This document shows positions 16,665 to 64,000 of a DNA stretch of 64,000 nt, in pieces. The DNA lies in assembly GCF_056746865.1 (NCBI RefSeq), contig NZ_CM163382.1. One strand, given 5' to 3'. The translations under genes were made by a program, and so were the position numbers. How positions within the stretch are numbered: the first letter of the stretch is position 1; every line of letters starts with the position of its first letter. The notes beneath the pieces are model-generated. The model saw nothing but the letters and a program-made list of their open reading frames with translations. It ran no database searches and was not told the DNA's origin.

Positions 16665-16781
16665 TGTGATCATCCTTTCGCAATTGACTGAAACACATTA
16701 ATTTTTTTAATAAAAATGCTACGCATCACACATTTAACTGATTCATGTAACAAATCATTTAAGTTTTGCTATCTTAACTGC

Positions 16782-16902
16782 GTGCAGCCTGAAAAACAGT
16801 GCTGTGCCCTTGTAACTCATCATAATAATTTACGGCGCAGCCAAGATTTCCCTGGTGTTGGCGCAGTATTCGCGCACCCCGGTCTAGCCGGGGTCATTTT
16901 TT
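16782..16902 (+). ncRNA. arcZ: ArcZ small RNA (Hfq-dependent), 3' end convergent with and overlapping arcB stop
   Basis: Sequence GTGCAGCCTGAAAAACAGTGCTGTGCC…GGCGCAGTATTCGCGCACCCCGGTCTAGCCGGGGTCATTTTTT matches the ArcZ sequence as I recall it, including seed region and intrinsic terminator. Confidence 0.8.
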
Positions 16903-26821: not shown

Positions 26822-27004
26822 GCTCTGTCCCAGCGCCGCCTCCTCAGAAAAGAGTCGGCGCTGAAATTCTCCTTTCTTTCTGGAAAGCGCCTCGCATAAT
26901 CTGAAGAAAACCAATGTAATACGCTCATCTGGATTGTTACCGGCAGATGCCCGGCGTATAGCTGATTCCATTATTCAACACAGCGCCATAAAAAGGGACA
27001 GATA

Positions 27005-28132
27005 ATGGAATCGCTCTCAGAGAGAACCACAGCAGGCTACCAGCAAATCCACGACGGCATTATTCATCTGGTCGATAGCGCCCGAACGGAAACGGTACGT
27101 AGCGTTAACGCGTTAATGACCGCGACGTACTGGGAAATTGGCCGACGAATTGTCGAATTTGAACAAGGCGGTGAGGCCAGGGCTGCGTATGGTGCGCAGC
27201 TAATCAAGCGACTATCAAAGGATTTAAGTCTAAGGTATAAGCGTGGGTTCTCTGCAAAAAACTTACGCCAAATGAGGCTTTTTTACCTCTTTTTTCAACA
27301 TGTTGAAATTCGCCAGACAGTGTCTGGCGAATTAACACCATTGGGAATGCCGCAGACACCGTCTGCAGAATTCCCATCGGCAAAGATTTGGCAGACGCTG
27401 TCTGCCAAATCTTTCCCCCTGCCCTGGTCCACCTACGTCCGTCTACTTTCCGTTAAAAACGCTGACGCCCGCAGCTTTTATGAAAAAGAGACGCTCCGCT
27501 GTGGTTGGTCTGTCCGCCAGCTAGAGCGGCAAATTGCGACCCAATTTTATGAGCGAACACTACTGTCACATGATAAATCAGCCATGCTGCAACAACACGC
27601 TCCTGCCGAGATGCATATTCTTCCGCAGCAGGCGATACGCGATCCCTTTGTGCTCGAATTTCTGGAATTGAAAGATGAATACTCAGAATCCGATTTTGAG
27701 GAGGCGCTGATCAACCACCTGATGGATTTCATGCTGGAACTTGGGGATGATTTTGCCTTTGTTGGTCGGCAGCGAAGGTTACGCATTGATGACAACTGGT
27801 TTCGGGTCGATCTGCTGTTTTTCCACCGCCGTTTACGCTGCCTGCTAATCGTCGATCTAAAAGTGGGCAAATTTAGCTATAGCGATGCCGGACAGATGAA
27901 TATGTATCTCAACTACGCCAAAGAGCACTGGACGCTACCGGATGAAAATCCGCCCATCGGTCTGATTCTCTGTGCAGAGAAAGGAGTCGGAGAAGCGCAT
28001 TATGCACTGGCTGGTTTGCCTAACACCGTTCTGGCGAGTGAATATAAGATGCAACTACCTGATGAAAAACGACTCGCGGATGAACTCGTTCGAACACAGG
28101 CGGTGCTAGAGGAAGGCTATAGACGCCGATAA
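27005..28132 (+). CDS. yhcG: DUF1016-family protein with C-terminal PDDEXK-like nuclease fold
   Basis: 375-aa ORF MESLSERTTAGYQQIHDGIIHLVD…; length and sequence match YhcG as I recall it; contains the internal tandem palindromic repeat. Confidence 0.8.
   Translation: MESLSERTTAGYQQIHDGIIHLVDSARTETVRSVNALMTATYWEIGRRIVEFEQGGEARAAYGAQLIKRLSKDLSLRYKRGFSAKNLRQMRLFYLFFQHVEIRQTVSGELTPLGMPQTPSAEFPSAKIWQTLSAKSFPLPWSTYVRLLSVKNADARSFYEKETLRCGWSVRQLERQIATQFYERTLLSHDKSAMLQQHAPAEMHILPQQAIRDPFVLEFLELKDEYSESDFEEALINHLMDFMLELGDDFAFVGRQRRLRIDDNWFRVDLLFFHRRLRCLLIVDLKVGKFSYSDAGQMNMYLNYAKEHWTLPDENPPIGLILCAEKGVGEAHYALAGLPNTVLASEYKMQLPDEKRLADELVRTQAVLEEGYRRR
27307..27411. repeat. three diverged 39-bp tandem units, each with a ~25-27-bp palindrome (GCAGAC…GTCTGC core), in-frame within yhcG
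   Basis: Seen directly: AATTCGCCAGACAGTGTCTGGCGAATT (27307-27333), CGCAGACACCGTCTGCAGAATTC (27351-27373), GATTTGGCAGACGCTGTCTGCCAAATC (27385-27411); centres ~39 bp apart. Confidence 0.85.
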
Positions 28133-28146
28133 TTTCAGCAATTTCG

Positions 28147-28173
28147 AATTCTGCAGACAGTGTCTGCAGAATC
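28147..28173. repeat. fourth copy of the yhcG-type palindrome, 15 bp downstream of the yhcG stop
   Basis: AATTCTGCAGACAGTGTCTGCAGAATC, near-perfect palindrome sharing the GCAGACAGTGTCTGC core. Confidence 0.8.
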
Positions 28174-28191
28174 TTTAAAACGAACTAAGTT

Positions 28192-29524
<1,333 letters not shown>

Positions 29525-29528
<4 letters not shown>

Positions 29529-30214
29529 AGCACCGCCTTTTTCATCGCTGTGTTGTACCACTGACAAATGTGTTCAAGACGCGTAATGGCAGAACCGACC
29601 GTCACCGCCCACGCGCCGTGGCGCATCGCATCTGCCGCCTGAGCAGGCGTGTTGTAACGCCCTTCGGCAATCACCCGACATCCGGCGTCGCTCAACGTTT
29701 TCACCAGCGCCAGATCCGGCTCTTCTGGCGTTTCAGGCGTGGTATAGCCAGAAAGCGTAGTGCCAATAATTTCGGCTCCCAGCTTTTGGCATGCCAGGCC
29801 GTCTTCCGGCGTTGAGCAGTCGGTCATCGCCAGTAAACCGTGATGGTGAATACGTGCCAGCAACGTTTCAACAGGCACCGGACGCGGGCGGTCGGTGCCG
29901 TCAATGGCGATAATGTCCGCGCCCGCCTGCGCCAGCGCATCAACATCTTCAATATAGGCCGTGATGCGTACCGGAGAATCCTCCAGATCGCGTTTCACAA
30001 TCCCGATAATTGGCACGCTCACCACCGCACGCGTGGCTTGCAGATTTGCCACACCTTCAATGCGAATGGCAACCGCGCCCGCCTGCTCTGCCGCTAATGC
30101 CATGGCGGCGACGATTTCGGGTTTATCGAGCGGGCTGTCCGGAACCGGCTGGCAGGAGACAATCAGGCCACCGTTAGCAGCGATTTTTTGATCCAGTTGT
30201 GCAAGTAACGACAT
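29525..30214 (-). CDS. nanE: N-acetylmannosamine-6-phosphate 2-epimerase
   Basis: Start at internal Met [23 protein letters not shown] (229 aa). Confidence 0.9.
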
Positions 30215-30261
30215 ACATCTTCCCTTAGCGAAAGGCCCGGTACAGAGACCGGGCAACAGGA

Positions 30262-31752
30262 TTAACTTTTGGTTTTGACTAAATCGTTTTTGGCGCGGCC
30301 AAATGGCACGGCACCGCTAAATGGTTTGCCGTCGATAGCGTCATGAGTACGCAATGCTTCCGGGCGCAACCAACGCTGAACGCGGGAAGGCATATCCAGA
30401 CCAATCAGCAGGATCACCACAAATGTCAGACTGAACGAGAGCGATGCCAGCGCAGTACCCAGATCCAGACGTTGAGCGATCAACGCGCCGATGATTGGGG
30501 CCAGTGCACCGCCCAATGCGCCGACGTTGTAGGTAAAGCCCAGGCCCGCTGCACGCTGGTCGGTATCGAAATAACCGCCAATCAGTTTCGGTAAGATCCC
30601 GGCGATCCCTTGTCCAAGCATTTGCTGGAAGAACAGTAACAGACCGAGCACCCAGACGTTTGCGCCGCCAATCGCAAATACCGGAATAATCAGCAGCTGC
30701 GAGGCCAGCAGGCTACAAACGTACGCTTTGCGGGTTCCCAGCCAGTCACCGAGGAAGCCACCTACGCAGCATCCCACCGCCGCGCCAAAGCCACTAAAGA
30801 ACAGCACATTGGCGACAGTATGCGGGTTATAAGCCAGATCGGTTTTCAGATACGTTGGCAGCAGCGCCTGAATCGGCCATGAGTAGAGGAAAGCAAACAA
30901 CACGACCACCATCAGCATTACGCCCGTTGGCCAGCGTTTGCCCGTACTTTGCACCATAAAGCTGATAAAGATTGCGGCGCATAACAGCCCAAGAACAGCG
31001 ACGATCGCGGCATTTTGCAGGTTACCGGCGAAGCAAAACCACAGCGCAGTAGCCGCCGCCAGTGTCATTACGATATTGGCAATGCGATGTTCACCACGGT
31101 AGAGAATATCTACCATCGTGCGTACTGGTGCTTTACCAGCATGTTTCTCTTTCCAGTCTTCCGCTTCCGGGATGTTTTTACGCAGCCAGAGAGCAAAGAT
31201 GATTGGCAAAATGCCGATAAAGAACAGCGCACGCCAGCCCCAGACCGGAACCACCAGGCTATAGACCTGAGCGGCAACGACGGCCCCCACAGAGAAGCCG
31301 GAAATCAGAAAACCACTGGCTTTATTACGCAGATGTTTTGGCCAGCTTTCAATGACATAGGTGGCGCTGGAACCGTATTCACCCGCCATCCCCATGCCGA
31401 TGACCAGACGAGCGATAAACATGGTGATGTAGCCTGGCGCAAAGCCGCAGGCCAGCGTCCCGGCCGAGAAGAGAACGATGCTGGTGACCATTGCCAGACG
31501 ACGCCCGTAGCGGTCACCCATAGCGCCGAGCATCAGGCCGCCGAACCAGCGAGAGATAAAGGCTGCGGAGATCAGACTTGCCGCCTGCACCGTCGTCAGC
31601 CCGAATTCACCTTGTACTTCGGTGAGTACCAGGGCGATTAAAACGAAATCAAAACCGTCAAGCAGATATCCCAACCAGGCAGCGGAAAATGCCCGCCATT
31701 GTGCACGATTGAGATGGCGATACCACGGGATATTCTGGGTTGTAGTACTCAT
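30262..31752 (-). CDS. nanT: sialic acid MFS transporter
   Basis: Start at internal Met [15 protein letters not shown] (496 aa); polytopic MFS. Confidence 0.9.
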
Positions 31753-31823
31753 TGTGAGTCTCCCGCGGTGGGCGATGCCCACACGCTTTGGTATGAAAAT
31801 TGTAGGGTACAGATGCGTTTATT

Positions 31824-31854
31824 TCCCCTCACCCGGTAGGGGCGAGCGAGGGGA
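31824..31854. repeat. GC-rich intergenic palindromic element (CCCCTCACCC…GGGGCGAGCGAGGGGA type) between nanT and nanA
   Basis: TCCCCTCACCCGGTAGGGGCGAGCGAGGGGA. Confidence 0.4.
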
Positions 31855-31860
31855 AACAAC

Positions 31861-32754
31861 TCACCCGCGCTCTTGCATCAACTGCTGGGCCAGCGCCTTC
31901 AGTTCTGGCAGATATTTTTCATCTACCGGTCCAAACGGTTTGCGGCACAGCGGCACAGAAACGACATCCATATAATGCAGGACCGTTTTCAGGCCGCGGA
32001 ATACGCCCGTTTTGATCAGTAAATCAATGACTTTATTACATTCGGTTTGCAGCTTCTGCGCGGTCTGGATATCGCCTTCTTTCAGCGCCTTCACAATCCC
32101 CTGATAACGCCAGCCCATGATGTTGTAGGTACTACCGATACCACCATCAGCGCCCGCCAGAAGACCAGAGGCGAAGATTTCGTCGTAACCGTTATAGAGC
32201 ACCAGATCAGGATGTTCACGACGGATCTGTTCCATCTGATAGAGATCGCCAGAGGTCTGTTTCAGCGCGCCGACACCAGGCAGCGTAACCAGGGTGTTGA
32301 TCTGATCCAGGGTTAGTTTTACCCCGCTCAGGGCAGGAATGTTGTACACCACCATCGGCAAACCATCCGCCGAATCAATAATTGCCCGATAGTGATCGCA
32401 GTGTTCTTCAAAGCTGAAAGGATAGTAGAACGGCGTGACGGCGGAGACGGCATCGAAGCCATAACGTTTAGCCGATGCCGCAAGTTGTTGGCTTTCAGCA
32501 GTGCTGACGCAACCGACGTGAGCGATGAGTTTAATCTTGCCTTTCGCCTCTTCGGCGACGATTTCCAGTACCTGTTCACGCTCGGAAAGGCTTTGTACAA
32601 AGGCTTCGCCGGTAGAACCACCCACGTATAAACCGTCGATGCCCTGCTGAATATTGAACTGAACCAGGCGACGCAGACTCGCTTTATCCAGTGCTTGTTG
32701 TTGATCAAAAGGAGTCAGGAGTGCGGCCATTACGCCACGTAAATTCGTTGCCAT
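31861..32754 (-). CDS. nanA: N-acetylneuraminate lyase
   Basis: Start at internal Met [16 protein letters not shown] (297 aa); DHDPS/NAL fold. Confidence 0.9.
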
Positions 32755-32790
32755 AAATACCTCTGAAGTGATGCTTGTCTGATAAAACGA

Positions 32791-32813
32791 TATACCTTTA
32801 TACCTGTTATACC
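32791..32813 (-). promoter_or_regulatory. NanR operator (three GGTATA repeats) in the nanA promoter/leader
   Basis: Minus-strand sequence GGTATAACAGGTATAAAGGTATA, 37 bp upstream of the nanA ATG. Confidence 0.75.
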
Positions 32814-32876
32814 AGATCAATTAAGCAACACCCCATACAGAAAGCTTATAATGCGATCTGCTTCACTAAAGTGGCA

Positions 32877-33668
32877 TTATTTCTTTTTGTTGGTGCTCTG
32901 ACCGAAGGCATGCCAGGTAGCAGAGACGCTGTTGAGATGCGATTGCAACGCGCGATCGGCTTCATCGGGATCATGGCGGCGGATCGCGTCAACGATCGCA
33001 ATATGCTGTTGATAGCTAACGTTGTTATGCTCGTGCAGAGCCTGATCAGCCACGGTTGGACGTGCGGCGATCAGCCAGTCGAGCAAGGCAACGTGGATCG
33101 CCATGAAGATTGGGTTACCGGGGATCTCCGCCAGCACGCGGTGGAAATCAACGTCTGAACGAATGAATGCCGCGTTGTTATCCAGCGACTGACTGTTGAT
33201 TTCCAGTGCTTTTGCCAGCAAATCGATTTGCTCATCGGTGGCGTGTTCAGCCGCATAGCGCACCAGGCTGGATTCAAAGAACAGACGTAATTGTTCGAAA
33301 TGGGCAATCCCACCAGGATGAGAAAGGAAATCTTTCGCCATGCCGGAAAGCTCGCCGATGATGGTGTCCGCAGAAGGACGTGAGACGCGAGCGCGTTCGC
33401 CGTTGTTTATTTGCACCAGACCTTTACGTTTTAACGCTGCCAGCGCTTCACGCACCGAAGGACGCCCGACATTAAAGAACGCCATCAGTTCGCGTTCAGA
33501 CGGTAATTGTTCACCTTCGCCAAATTCACGACGGCGGATCATCTGTTCCAGCTCTTCTTCCACCATTTCGGAGAGTTTTTTACGCGCCAGCGGGCGGCTA
33601 CGCAAGTTGCGACCAATTGCAGGTGAAGAATCTTCGGTTTGCGAATCAAATGCGTTCATAAGGCCCAT
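32877..33668 (-). CDS. nanR: GntR/FadR-family repressor of sialic acid catabolism
   Basis: 263-aa ORF with N-terminal HTH (GntR) and FCD domain, upstream of nanA. Confidence 0.9.
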
Positions 33669-33774
33669 TCTGTAAGGTCAGTGTGATTAACATCATCAGT
33701 GACATCCTATCACAGGATTGAAAGTAGGGGAAAATGGCAGGGTTTTCTCTTTGTGCCTCATCATTACCATAATT

Positions 33775-33783
33775 AACGGAATA
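33775..33783. repeat. IS1 target-site duplication, left copy (AACGGAATA)
   Basis: Identical 9-mer directly flanks both IS1 termini. Confidence 0.85.
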
Positions 33784-33798
33784 GGTAATGACTCCAAC

Positions 33799-34302
33799 TT
33801 ATTGATAGTGTTTTATGTTCAGATAATGCCCGATGACTTTGTCATGCAGCTCCACCGATTTTGAGAACGACAGCGACTTCCGTCCCAGCCGTGCCAGGTG
33901 CTGCCTCAGATTCAGGTTATGCCGCTCAATTCGCTGCGTATATCGCTTGCTGATTACGTGCAGCTTTCCCTTCAGGCGGGATTCATACAGCGGCCAGCCA
34001 TCCGTCATCCATATCACCACGTCAAAGGGTGACAGCAGGCTCATAAGACGCCCCAGCGTCGCCATAGTGCGTTCACCGAATACGTGCGCAACAACCGTCT
34101 TCCGGAGCCTGTCATACGCGTAAAACAGCCAGCGCTGGCGCGATTTAGCCCCGACGTATCCCCACTGTTCGTCCATTTCCGCGCAGACGATGACGTCACT
34201 GCCCGGCTGTATGCGCGAGGTTACCGACTGCGGCCTGAGTTTTTTAAATGGCGGAAAATCGTGTTGAGGCCAACGCCCATAATGCGGGCGGTTGCCCGGC
34301 AT
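33799..34302 (-). CDS. insB: IS1 transposase InsB reading frame (expressed as InsAB' by -1 frameshift)
   Basis: 167-aa [28 protein letters not shown]… overlapping insA 3' end in the -1 frame. Confidence 0.85.
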
Positions 34303-34496
34303 CCAACGCCATTCATGGCCATATCAATGATTTTCTGGTGCGTACCGGGTTGAGAAGCGGTGTAAGTGAACTGCAGTTGCCATGTTTTACGGCAGTGAGA
34401 GCAGAGATAGCGCTGATGTCCGGCAGTGCTTTTGCCGTTACGCACCACCCCGTCAGTAGCTGAACAGGAGGGACAGCTGATAGAAACAGAAGCCAC
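34221..34496 (-). CDS. insA: IS1 InsA transcriptional repressor / transposase N-terminal part
   Basis: 91-aa [46 protein letters not shown]… (zinc finger + HTH). Confidence 0.9.
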
Positions 34497-34551
34497 TGGA
34501 GCACCTCAAAAACACCATCATACACTAAATCAGTAAGTTGGCAGCATCACC

Positions 34552-34560
34552 AACGGAATA
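34552..34560. repeat. IS1 target-site duplication, right copy (AACGGAATA)
   Basis: Identical 9-mer to 33775-33783. Confidence 0.85.
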
Positions 34561-34824
34561 ATTAACTATTGCGAAAAATTAATGTAACGCAGATAAAAAC
34601 ATCCCGATTGAATTATTTATAAGACTATTCACGAGCATTATGAATATTATGAATGTGTTCTTACAAAATAATCATAAGCGCATATTTTTTAATGAAAAAT
34701 CACCTCACCTACAATTAAAAACACGACATCCGCACCATAAATAACCTTGCAAAAAATATAACATCATTGTTTTCAATCTGCCGTTTATGGGATTGACCGT
34801 TTTCTTTTGACACGGAGTTCAACA

Positions 34825-36192
34825 ATGTTCGGCATAATTATATCTGTCATCGTATTAATTACGATGGGCTATTTGATCCTGAAAAACTACAAACCTCAGG
34901 TGGTGCTGGCTGCCGCAGGTATCTTCCTGATGATGTGCGGTGTCTGGTTAGGGTTCGGTGGTGTGCTCGATCCCGCCAAAAGCAGCGGCTACTTGATCGT
35001 CGATATTTATAATGAAATCCTGCGCATGCTGTCCAACCGCATTGCTGGATTGGGGCTGTCGATTATGGCAGTGGGCGGTTATGCCCGCTATATGGAGCGC
35101 ATAGGGGCAAGTCGCGCGATGGTGAGCTTGTTAAGCCGCCCGTTAAAACTCATTCGCTCGCCGTATATTATTCTGTCGGCAACTTACGTCATCGGCCAAA
35201 TCATGGCGCAGTTTATTACCAGCGCCTCCGGTCTGGGTATGTTGCTGATGGTCACCTTATTTCCGACGCTGGTGAGTCTGGGAGTAAGTCGTCTCTCTGC
35301 GGTGGCGGTTATCGCAACCACCATGTCCATTGAGTGGGGGATTCTGGAAACGAACTCCATTTTTGCTGCCCAGGTCGCAGGAATGAAAATTGCCACTTAC
35401 TTCTTCCACTACCAGCTTCCGGTCGCCTCTTGCGTCATTATCTCGGTGGCGATCTCCCACTTTTTCGTGCAACGCGCTTTCGACAAAAAAGATAAAAATA
35501 TCAATCACGAACAGGCAGAGCAAAAAGCTCTCGATAATGTCCCGCCGCTCTATTACGCCATTTTACCGGTGATGCCGTTAATCCTGATGCTCGGCTCGCT
35601 GTTCCTTGCCCACGTCGGGCTGATGCAGTCAGAACTGCATCTGGTGGTGGTGATGTTACTGAGTTTGACGGTGACGATGTTTGTTGAGTTCTTCCGCAAG
35701 CATAACTTGCGCGAAACAATGGATGATGTGCAGGCGTTTTTTGACGGCATGGGTACGCAGTTTGCCAACGTGGTAACGCTGGTGGTCGCGGGTGAAATAT
35801 TTGCGAAAGGCTTAACGACGATTGGCACTGTCGATGCGGTTATCAGGGGTGCGGAGCATTCTGGTCTGGGCGGTATTGGCGTGATGATTATTATGGCGCT
35901 GGTCATTGCCATTTGTGCCATTGTGATGGGCTCAGGCAATGCGCCGTTTATGTCATTTGCCAGTCTTATTCCGAATATCGCAGCCGGACTACATGTGCCA
36001 GCGGTTGTAATGATTATGCCGATGCATTTTGCCACGACGCTAGCGCGCGCTGTTTCGCCGATTACTGCGGTGGTGGTCGTTACGTCAGGAATTGCAGGCG
36101 TTTCGCCTTTTGCGGTAGTGAAGCGGACAGCGATCCCCATGGCAGTCGGTTTCGTGGTGAATATGATTGCCACAATCACGCTATTTTATTAA
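34825..36192 (+). CDS. dcuD: DcuC-family C4-dicarboxylate transporter
   Basis: Start at ATG 34825 ([11 protein letters not shown]…, 455 aa) preceded by GGAG; the ORF-track start at 34807 is a TTG. Confidence 0.88.
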
Positions 36193-63073: not shown

Positions 63074-64000
63074 ATGCAGGCGTTACTTTTAGAACAGCAG
63101 GACGGCAAAACTCTCGCATCGGTACAGACTCTGGACGAAAGTCGCCTGCCGGAGGGCGATGTCACGGTTGATGTTCACTGGTCGAGCCTGAACTACAAAG
63201 ATGCGCTGGCAATTACCGGTAAGGGAAAAATCATCCGTAATTTTCCGATGATTCCTGGGATCGATTTTGCCGGAACTGTACGCACCAGCGAAGATCCGCG
63301 TTTTCATGCCGGTCAGGAGGTATTACTCACTGGCTGGGGCGTTGGTGAAAACCACTGGGGTGGGCTGGCGGAGCAGGCGCGAGTGAAAGGTGACTGGCTG
63401 GTTGCCATGCCGCAAGGGCTGGACGCGCGTAAAGCAATGATTATCGGTACTGCCGGTTTTACCGCCATGCTGTGTGTGATGGCGCTGGAAGATGCCGGTG
63501 TTCGCCCGCAGGACGGCGAGATTGTCGTAACGGGTGCCAGTGGTGGCGTCGGCAGTACCGCCGTGGCGCTGCTGCATAAGTTGGGTTATCAGGTCGTTGC
63601 CGTTTCTGGTCGCGAAAGTACCCATGAATATCTGAAAAGTTTAGGAGCCAGCCGTATTCTCTCTCGCGATGAGTTTGCCGAATCCCGTCCTCTGGAAAAA
63701 CAACTCTGGGCTGGGGCAATTGACACCGTTGGCGACAAAGTGCTGGCGAAAGTGCTAGCGCAAATGAATTACGGCGGCTGCGTGGCGGCCTGTGGTCTGG
63801 CGGGTGGTTTTACTCTGCCAACCACGGTCATGCCATTTATTCTGCGTAATGTCCGTTTACAGGGGGTGGATTCAGTGATGACGCCACCAGCACGCCGCGC
63901 ACAAGCCTGGCAGCGACTGGTCGCCGATTTACCGGAATCATTCTATACCCAGGCGGCAAAAGAGATATCTCTGGCAGAGGCACCGAAGTTTGCCGAGGCC
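63074..64000 (+). CDS. acuI: acrylyl-CoA reductase / quinone oxidoreductase family, 3'-truncated by window edge
   Basis: ATG at 63074 (MQALLLEQQDGKTLASVQTLDESRLPEGDVTVDVHWSSLNYKDALAITGKG…), open to the end of the window; absent from the ORF track because there is no stop. Confidence 0.85.
   Translation, partial: MQALLLEQQDGKTLASVQTLDESRLPEGDVTVDVHWSSLNYKDALAITGKGKIIRNFPMIPGIDFAGTVRTSEDPRFHAGQEVLLTGWGVGENHWGGLAEQARVKGDWLVAMPQGLDARKAMIIGTAGFTAMLCVMALEDAGVRPQDGEIVVTGASGGVGSTAVALLHKLGYQVVAVSGRESTHEYLKSLGASRILSRDEFAESRPLEKQLWAGAIDTVGDKVLAKVLAQMNYGGCVAACGLAGGFTLPTTVMPFILRNVRLQGVDSVMTPPARRAQAWQRLVADLPESFYTQAAKEISLAEAPKFAEA

Follow-up and report, generated by a model that had tools for sequence, protein, structure and literature searches.

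The window analysed here, by which we mean the whole stretch of 64,000 nucleotides, is the reverse complement of positions 517383-581382 of the chromosome of E. coli EC31, an isolate from meat duck in China, with which it agrees at 64000 of 64000 bases. The part that concerns us is the spacer between nanR and dcuD. nanR occupies 32877-33668 on the minus strand and encodes an intact protein of 263 aa (408.5 bits against NF003011, cutoff 260), and it belongs to the nanRATEK-yhcH locus, which is core to E. coli and present in >99% of isolates (PMC10088187). dcuD, called "dcuC" by PGAP, occupies 34825-36192 on the plus strand and encodes an intact protein of 455 aa (1030 bits against NF007317, well above the cutoff). 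The native spacer between the two genes is 380 bp long with a G+C content of 33%, and its core lies at 23-35% G+C. In the window it holds a complete IS1 of 768 bp at 33784-34551 on the minus strand, as read from the sequence itself, from its repeats and from reconstruction of the empty site. The element ends 115 nt from the nanR ATG on the IRR side (33669-33783, one copy of the target repeat included) and 273 nt from the dcuD ATG (34825) on the IRL side, and both insA and insB lie on the nanR strand. The element is already part of the RefSeq annotation, the identical copy in EC31 being labelled by PGAP as "IS1-like element IS1B family".

The terminal inverted repeats are IRR (GGTAATGACTCCAACTTATTGAT, 33784-33806, plus strand), beside the insB end and facing nanR, and IRL (GGTGATGCTGCCAACTTACTGAT, 34529-34551, minus strand), beside insA and facing dcuD. 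A repeat finder aligned the two over 23 nt with 18 of 23 positions complementary (78%), a level that is normal for the 23-nt terminal repeats of IS1. Imperfect repeats of ~23 bp starting GGTRATG and an element length of ~768 bp, the features by which IS1 ends were recognised, were both found. This end pattern matched twice in the 64 kb, in each case at one of these ends, against 0 matches expected from shuffles; since it was matched at these two places only, 33784-34551 is the sole IS1 copy in the window. Within the element insA, the transposition inhibitor/repressor of 91 aa, forms an intact open reading frame at 34221-34496 (minus strand), and the insB' reading frame at 33799-34302 (minus strand) is expressed only as the InsAB' fusion, which spans 33799-34496 and is free of stops over its 232 aa. 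The A6C site (AAAAAAC) for the -1 programmed frameshift is at 34239-34245 on the minus strand, IS position 307, and PGAP remarks on a "programmed frameshift" in the identical IS1 sequence. InsAB' scores 243.8 bits against the NCBIfam equivalog model NF033558 (IS1 family transposase; cutoff 100, E = 1.4e-72). A promoter-like match within IRL, CTGCCA-16-TATGAT (34517-34544, minus strand), is a consensus match only, its position being that expected of IS1's own insA promoter (pIRL). With every sequence requirement intact, the copy in the window is probably still mobile. It shares with the IS1 elements of E. coli (IS1A-IS1F of K-12) the length of 768 bp, the imperfect 23-nt repeats, the insA/insB' arrangement with an A6C -1 frameshift, the 9-bp duplication and the preference for AT-rich DNA, so that there is no structural difference and its chromosomal position alone is peculiar to the sub-lineage described below; from the IS1A copies that lie in the same interval in K-12 C3026 and AH01 it differs at 8 of 768 positions.

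Each end of the element is abutted by one copy of a 9-bp target-site duplication, AACGGAATA, the left copy at 33775-33783 and the right copy at 34552-34560. The sequence occurs exactly twice in the window, once against each IS1 end, its length falls within the 8-9 bp of target duplication found in the IS1 family, and the probability of a chance 9-bp match at two fixed positions was calculated as about 4e-6. When IS1 and one copy of the repeat are subtracted from the window, what remains is, base for base, the spacer of the uninterrupted strain 2017C-4173W12. The first-pass annotation, made from the letters of the window, had described a 768-bp IS1 with canonical inverted repeats and intact insA/insB, perfect 9-bp duplications on both flanks, a position ~115 bp upstream of the nanR start with insA/insB on the same strand as nanR, and a simple transposition, and had proposed comparison with an uninterrupted nanR-dcuD region. 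The repeats, the reading frames and the NF033558 score bear out the first of these points, the two abutting copies of AACGGAATA the second and the measured distance of 115 nt the third, while the intact element, the perfect duplication and the exact empty-site match in 2017C-4173W12 agree with a simple transposition.

Among 5,426 complete E. coli genomes, 9 have an IS1 oriented as in the window within the nanR-dcuD interval that was queried, and a match to the IS1 allele of the window at 100% identity is confined to EC31 and EF5-18-41 (chicken, Laos). A third isolate, CFSAN061770 (raw-milk cheese, Egypt), shares the left junction and carries an IS1 that is 100% identical, but 252 bp toward dcuD are gone, including the right repeat, and 12 nt are left before the dcuD ATG. 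Such a structure is what an IS1-mediated adjacent deletion would be expected to leave, and it suggests that this very copy of IS1 was active after its insertion. Closest relatives were taken from an IS-free 25-kb query, as the results of an IS-spanning 25-kb query were confounded by nearby IS1 copies that the search joined into the match. The 25-kb right flank was found without any mismatch in 60 genomes, 15 of which had an uninterrupted spacer (791 bp in the nanR-dcuD search), and HSP60 (human urine, Brazil) has 24 kb of flanks that are 100% identical and an empty site; at least 16 genomes combine identical flanks with an empty site. Since flank-identical genomes have the site empty, the insertion is recent, belongs to a small sub-lineage and is not fixed in the wider clone. 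This supports the earlier description of the insertion as fairly recent, the allele being identical in EC31 and EF5-18-41 and the site empty in relatives with 0 mismatches over 24-25 kb; the same description had named fixation of the IS1 across a whole lineage, with unchanged nanR/nan expression, as the finding that would make it a neutral lineage marker, and fixation is not what the flank-identical genomes display. nanR, nanA, nanT, nanE, nanK, nanQ and dcuD are all annotated as intact, and their protein accessions are those of IS-free relatives. An intact IS1 has entered the AT-rich spacer by ordinary transposition in the recent ancestor of a small poultry- and food-associated sub-lineage. 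Carriers are now known from three countries, so the allele has spread, which is compatible with neutrality and equally with a benefit.

We note in passing several features of the wider neighbourhood. The EC31 chromosome has only 2 places that match the IS1-containing query, as compared to 14 in EF5-18-41, and the nanR-dcuD copy is thus among very few chromosomal IS1 copies in EC31. The arcB-elbB spacer (16665-16893) is empty in the window; HSP60, which in other respects agrees with the window in this part, has an IS1A there, directly past arcB on its 3' side, and the 25-kb search joined an IS1 piece close to arcB in many laboratory derivatives of K-12 as well; this spacer may be another recurrent IS1 site. 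In the gltD-yhcG spacer (~26822-27004) yhcG directly follows gltD in this lineage, and for K-12-type genomes the same query lists the yhcD fimbrial usher and a span ~5-12 kb longer, a pattern suggestive of presence/absence polymorphism in the yhc fimbrial cluster.

The first-pass annotation did not detect that the nanR-dcuD spacer has been struck by IS1 many times. With the IS1 of the query turned round, 39 further genomes emerged that have IS1 in the nanR-dcuD interval, and counting both orientations ~48 genomes carry an IS1 here, about 1% of the 5,426 complete E. coli genomes. An apparent orientation bias, in that the first 12 IS1-bearing genomes all had insAB directed toward nanR, was rejected given these 39 genomes, and arose because the search joins only pieces on the same strand. 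Mapping of junctions in 20 representatives on the empty reference resolved at least 16 distinct IS1 structures. Several are simple insertions. One target, GGGTTTTC / GGTTTTTC at 33740-33747, is occupied in K-12 C3026 in the orientation of the window and in a lineage of 14 genomes from human, dog and cat in the flipped orientation; the window itself has AACGGAATA at 33775-33783 in its own orientation, UTAK-5 has TGTGTTCT in the flipped orientation, and AH01, 258E and WP2-W18-CRE-03 have TGACACGGA in the orientation of the window. Others are in dcuD: a simple insertion at CTGTCATCG (34844-34852, dcuD codons 7-9) is found in GmM062, Evo1, S1-CAM-01-C and FDAARGOS_1282, with both orientations represented, and TUM1586 has one inside dcuD in the orientation of the window. 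The IS1 copies of the four simple CTGTCATCG insertions differ pairwise at 27-67 positions and reside in different dcuD backgrounds, which identifies them as independent events.

The remaining structures involve deletions. The CTGTCATCG junction is common to four deletion derivatives (EC2641, FDAARGOS_943, TOE3 and PRO_A-1443), the deletion of the ABWA45/ECONIH4/CX group extends into dcuD, and in TOE3 and F95 the entire nan operon (nanRATEK-nanQ, window ~27000-33700) has been deleted beside the IS1. The IS1 of TOE3 lies directly against sequence just downstream of gltD, and that of F95 against a truncated DUF1120 gene located downstream of yhcE, with nothing of nanR left in F95 but a stub. IS1-mediated adjacent deletions are well established (Turlan and Chandler 1995, cited in PMC9330008), and the present cases do not differ from this textbook behaviour: in CFSAN061770 one junction and the IS are retained and 252 bp together with the target duplication are missing on the opposite side, and TOE3 and F95 are without the whole nan operon beside their IS1. 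With regard to the targets themselves, CTGTCATCG, empty in the window, is the target in this region that IS1 has used most often in other genomes, and it overlaps a stem-loop, TCATCGTA-TTAAT-TACGATGG, with the palindrome at 34847-34867. The second recurrent target, GGGTTTTC, is 72-79 nt upstream of the nanR ATG and near the deletion endpoints of EC2641 and PRO_A-1443. An IHF site was considered as the cause of the hot spot and rejected, the consensus being not significantly enriched and without a match at the recurrent sites.

Two further AT-rich spacers in the window served as controls in the same two-orientation search. yhcN-argR (364 bp, 34% G+C) and argR-mdh (434 bp, 38% G+C) each gave 1 and 0 genomes with IS1, and the sole positive in both is the same genome, 14EC047, so that the comparison is one of 48 genomes against at most one. 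IS1 is known to prefer AT-rich DNA (Zerbib et al. 1985, cited in PMC9330008), and the repeated hits in the spacer favour target preference over a special event. Selection, like target preference, could produce the excess over the control spacers. We consider that the recurrence most likely and most simply represents the target preference of IS1, with a minority possibility that NanR dosage or the loss of dcuD has been under selection.

What the insertion does to nanR is a separate question. The suggestion in the first-pass annotation, that read-through or outward transcription from IS1, or separation of nanR from upstream elements, might alter NanR levels, is plausible, given that selection in a published evolution experiment yielded IS5 insertions in this spacer. 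There, three BW25113 delta-glk delta-pts lineages were selected for recruitment of NanK; two of them acquired one and the same IS5 insertion between nanR and dcuD, which became fixed in one, and the authors class it among the nan-regulation mutations that precede NanK recruitment (bioRxiv 10.64898/2026.02.02.703383). The exact position of the laboratory insertion is not given in the text or supplement of the paper, as far as these were accessible. The laboratory case has the same spacer in common with the window and differs in being an IS5 with a 4-bp duplication, in a laboratory strain and under strong artificial selection; no such selection is known for the natural isolates. Even so, that study shows that insertions here can matter.

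A full-text literature search that included transcription-start and operon supplements found no mapped promoter or transcription start for nanR, and the promoter evidence consists of consensus matches, which lie on both sides of the insertion point. Two candidate sigma-70-like matches (34637-34698, minus strand, that is, the nanR strand) are the only 9/12 matches on the nanR strand of the native spacer; there the insertion point falls between them and the ATG, which is 192-253 nt downstream, and in the window they are moved 777 bp further from nanR. The count of sigma-70-like matches in the native spacer is no higher than in shuffles. At the junction itself a candidate fusion promoter, TTGGAG in IRR and AATTAT in the flank with 17 bp between them (33769-33797, minus strand), reaches 7/12 in a relaxed scan and falls below the threshold of the standard scan. 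In the same relaxed scan the insertion point is inside the spacer of a weaker native pair, TTCGCA-18-AATTAT, the native -35 having been swapped for the TTGGAG of IRR, and a weak pair with an extended -10, TTTCCC-18-TAGGAT, is still attached to nanR. Fusion promoters of this type are known from blaTEM-1 (Prentki et al. 1986) and from IS1 upstream of acrEF in Salmonella (both reviewed in PMC9330008). As in those cases, a -35-like hexamer points outward from an IS1 end in the window, and a -10-like hexamer in the flanking DNA stands at promoter distance from it; in contrast to them, the pair is weak (7/12) and would replace an equally hypothetical native pair as opposed to activating a silent gene.

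The NanR operator, defined as (GGTATA)3 in PMC8012715, occurs once in the window, at the nanA promoter (32791-32813, minus strand). Autoregulation of nanR through an upstream NanR operator was therefore rejected, and the IS1 neither touches the operator nor parts nanR from an operator upstream. The spacer gave no Rfam match to a non-coding RNA up to E = 1. In the lineage of 14 genomes an IS1 is tolerated even closer to nanR than in the window. Together, the -35/-10-like pair rebuilt at the junction, the untouched operator and nan genes, and this tolerance of a closer IS1 would argue against a strong effect.

How, then, should the insertion be explained? One might suppose that it is adaptive, in that IS1 severs nanR from its upstream promoter or activating sequences and has a polar effect on incoming transcripts, whereupon NanR drops, nanATEK-nanQ and other NanR targets are partly derepressed, and the bacterium is favoured in a gut or poultry niche; a benefit in that niche would, as a corollary, explain why the spacer collects IS insertions. 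That the best nanR-strand sigma-70-like matches are upstream of the insertion point speaks for this, as do the several independent IS1 events 72-115 bp upstream of nanR, the far greater number of IS1 in nanR-dcuD than in the control spacers and the IS5 insertions that appeared in two of three nanK-selected lineages and became fixed in one. However, the most frequently hit site is inside dcuD and not upstream of nanR, the promoter-like matches are no more numerous than in shuffles, a -35/-10-like pair is rebuilt at the junction, and a full-text literature search for IS1 together with nanR returned no mention of such a link. We regard an adaptive role for this insertion as unlikely. A broader version of the same idea would see the nanR-dcuD spacer as a selected "tuning knob", in which IS1 in nature and IS5 in the laboratory are favoured for lower NanR dosage, for derepression of sialic acid use or for removal of dcuD, the IS1 of the window being one natural example in a poultry-associated clone; this we hold to be rather improbable.

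Alternatively, the insertion might have switched on a cryptic dcuD, in a manner resembling the bgl operon, by disrupting a silencing AT-rich region or by supplying an outward promoter from IRL. dcuD is reportedly silent under laboratory conditions, the spacer is very AT-rich (23-35% G+C), and IRL contains an outward TTGGCA hexamer, so the resemblance to bgl, which is activated by IS1 or IS5, extends to an IS in an AT-rich region upstream of a reputedly silent gene. IS1 fusion promoters are moreover known to activate neighbouring genes (PMC9330008). Yet the IRL hexamer has no acceptable -10 at a distance of 16-18 bp, 273 nt separate the IS end from the dcuD ATG, and the CFSAN061770 derivative is without the whole dcuD upstream region. 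Unlike the situation at bgl, most other related IS1 events here either destroy dcuD, through insertion at codons 7-9 or elsewhere in the gene or through a deletion, or remove the region upstream of it. A full-text literature search for dcuD with H-NS gave unrelated table entries only. The want of a usable -10 near the IRL hexamer and the related events that destroy dcuD or its upstream region make activation of dcuD very improbable. As for a copy of IS1 misplaced by the assembler, IS copies are a classic cause of misassembly, but two complete genomes that were sequenced independently have identical junctions, a third has the left one, and the perfect 9-bp duplication with exact reconstruction of the empty site is the signature of real transposition, which together leave next to no room for such an artefact.

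We therefore favour, as the probable explanation, an ordinary recent IS1 transposition that was sited by target preference and now serves as a nearly neutral marker. On this account the preference of IS1 for a few 8-9-bp sites would have put the element here; the recurrence at such sites is observed, and its cause is what we infer. Everything upstream of nanR -107 has been moved 777 bp further off, and the IRR end brings a -35-like TTGGAG to 17 bp from the retained AATTAT. Transcription of nanR would presumably continue, whether it starts at the junction or at proximal signals or reaches the gene as weak read-through from insAB, leaving the insertion near-neutral and the change in NanR dosage, if any, modest. 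The main consequence that has been demonstrated is of another kind: the insertion has acted as a seed for IS1-mediated adjacent deletions, one derivative having lost 252 bp of the dcuD upstream region.

The IS1 between nanR and dcuD is accordingly a known element and an ordinary recent polymorphism, and the observations in its earlier description were correct throughout. Its use is mainly as a marker of a small sub-lineage that has been recovered from duck in China, chicken in Laos and cheese in Egypt. What the present analysis adds is the recurrent targeting of the nanR-dcuD spacer, in which IS1 copies at a few recurrent targets have seeded deletions that remove dcuD sequences or the whole nan operon. 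If it is true that insertions in this spacer shift the dosage of NanR, they would constitute a natural case of IS-driven tuning of sialic acid use, with relevance to colonisation of the gut, and if the spacer is indeed a selected "tuning knob", the insertion described here would represent an adaptive rewiring of the sialoregulon in a poultry-associated clone.
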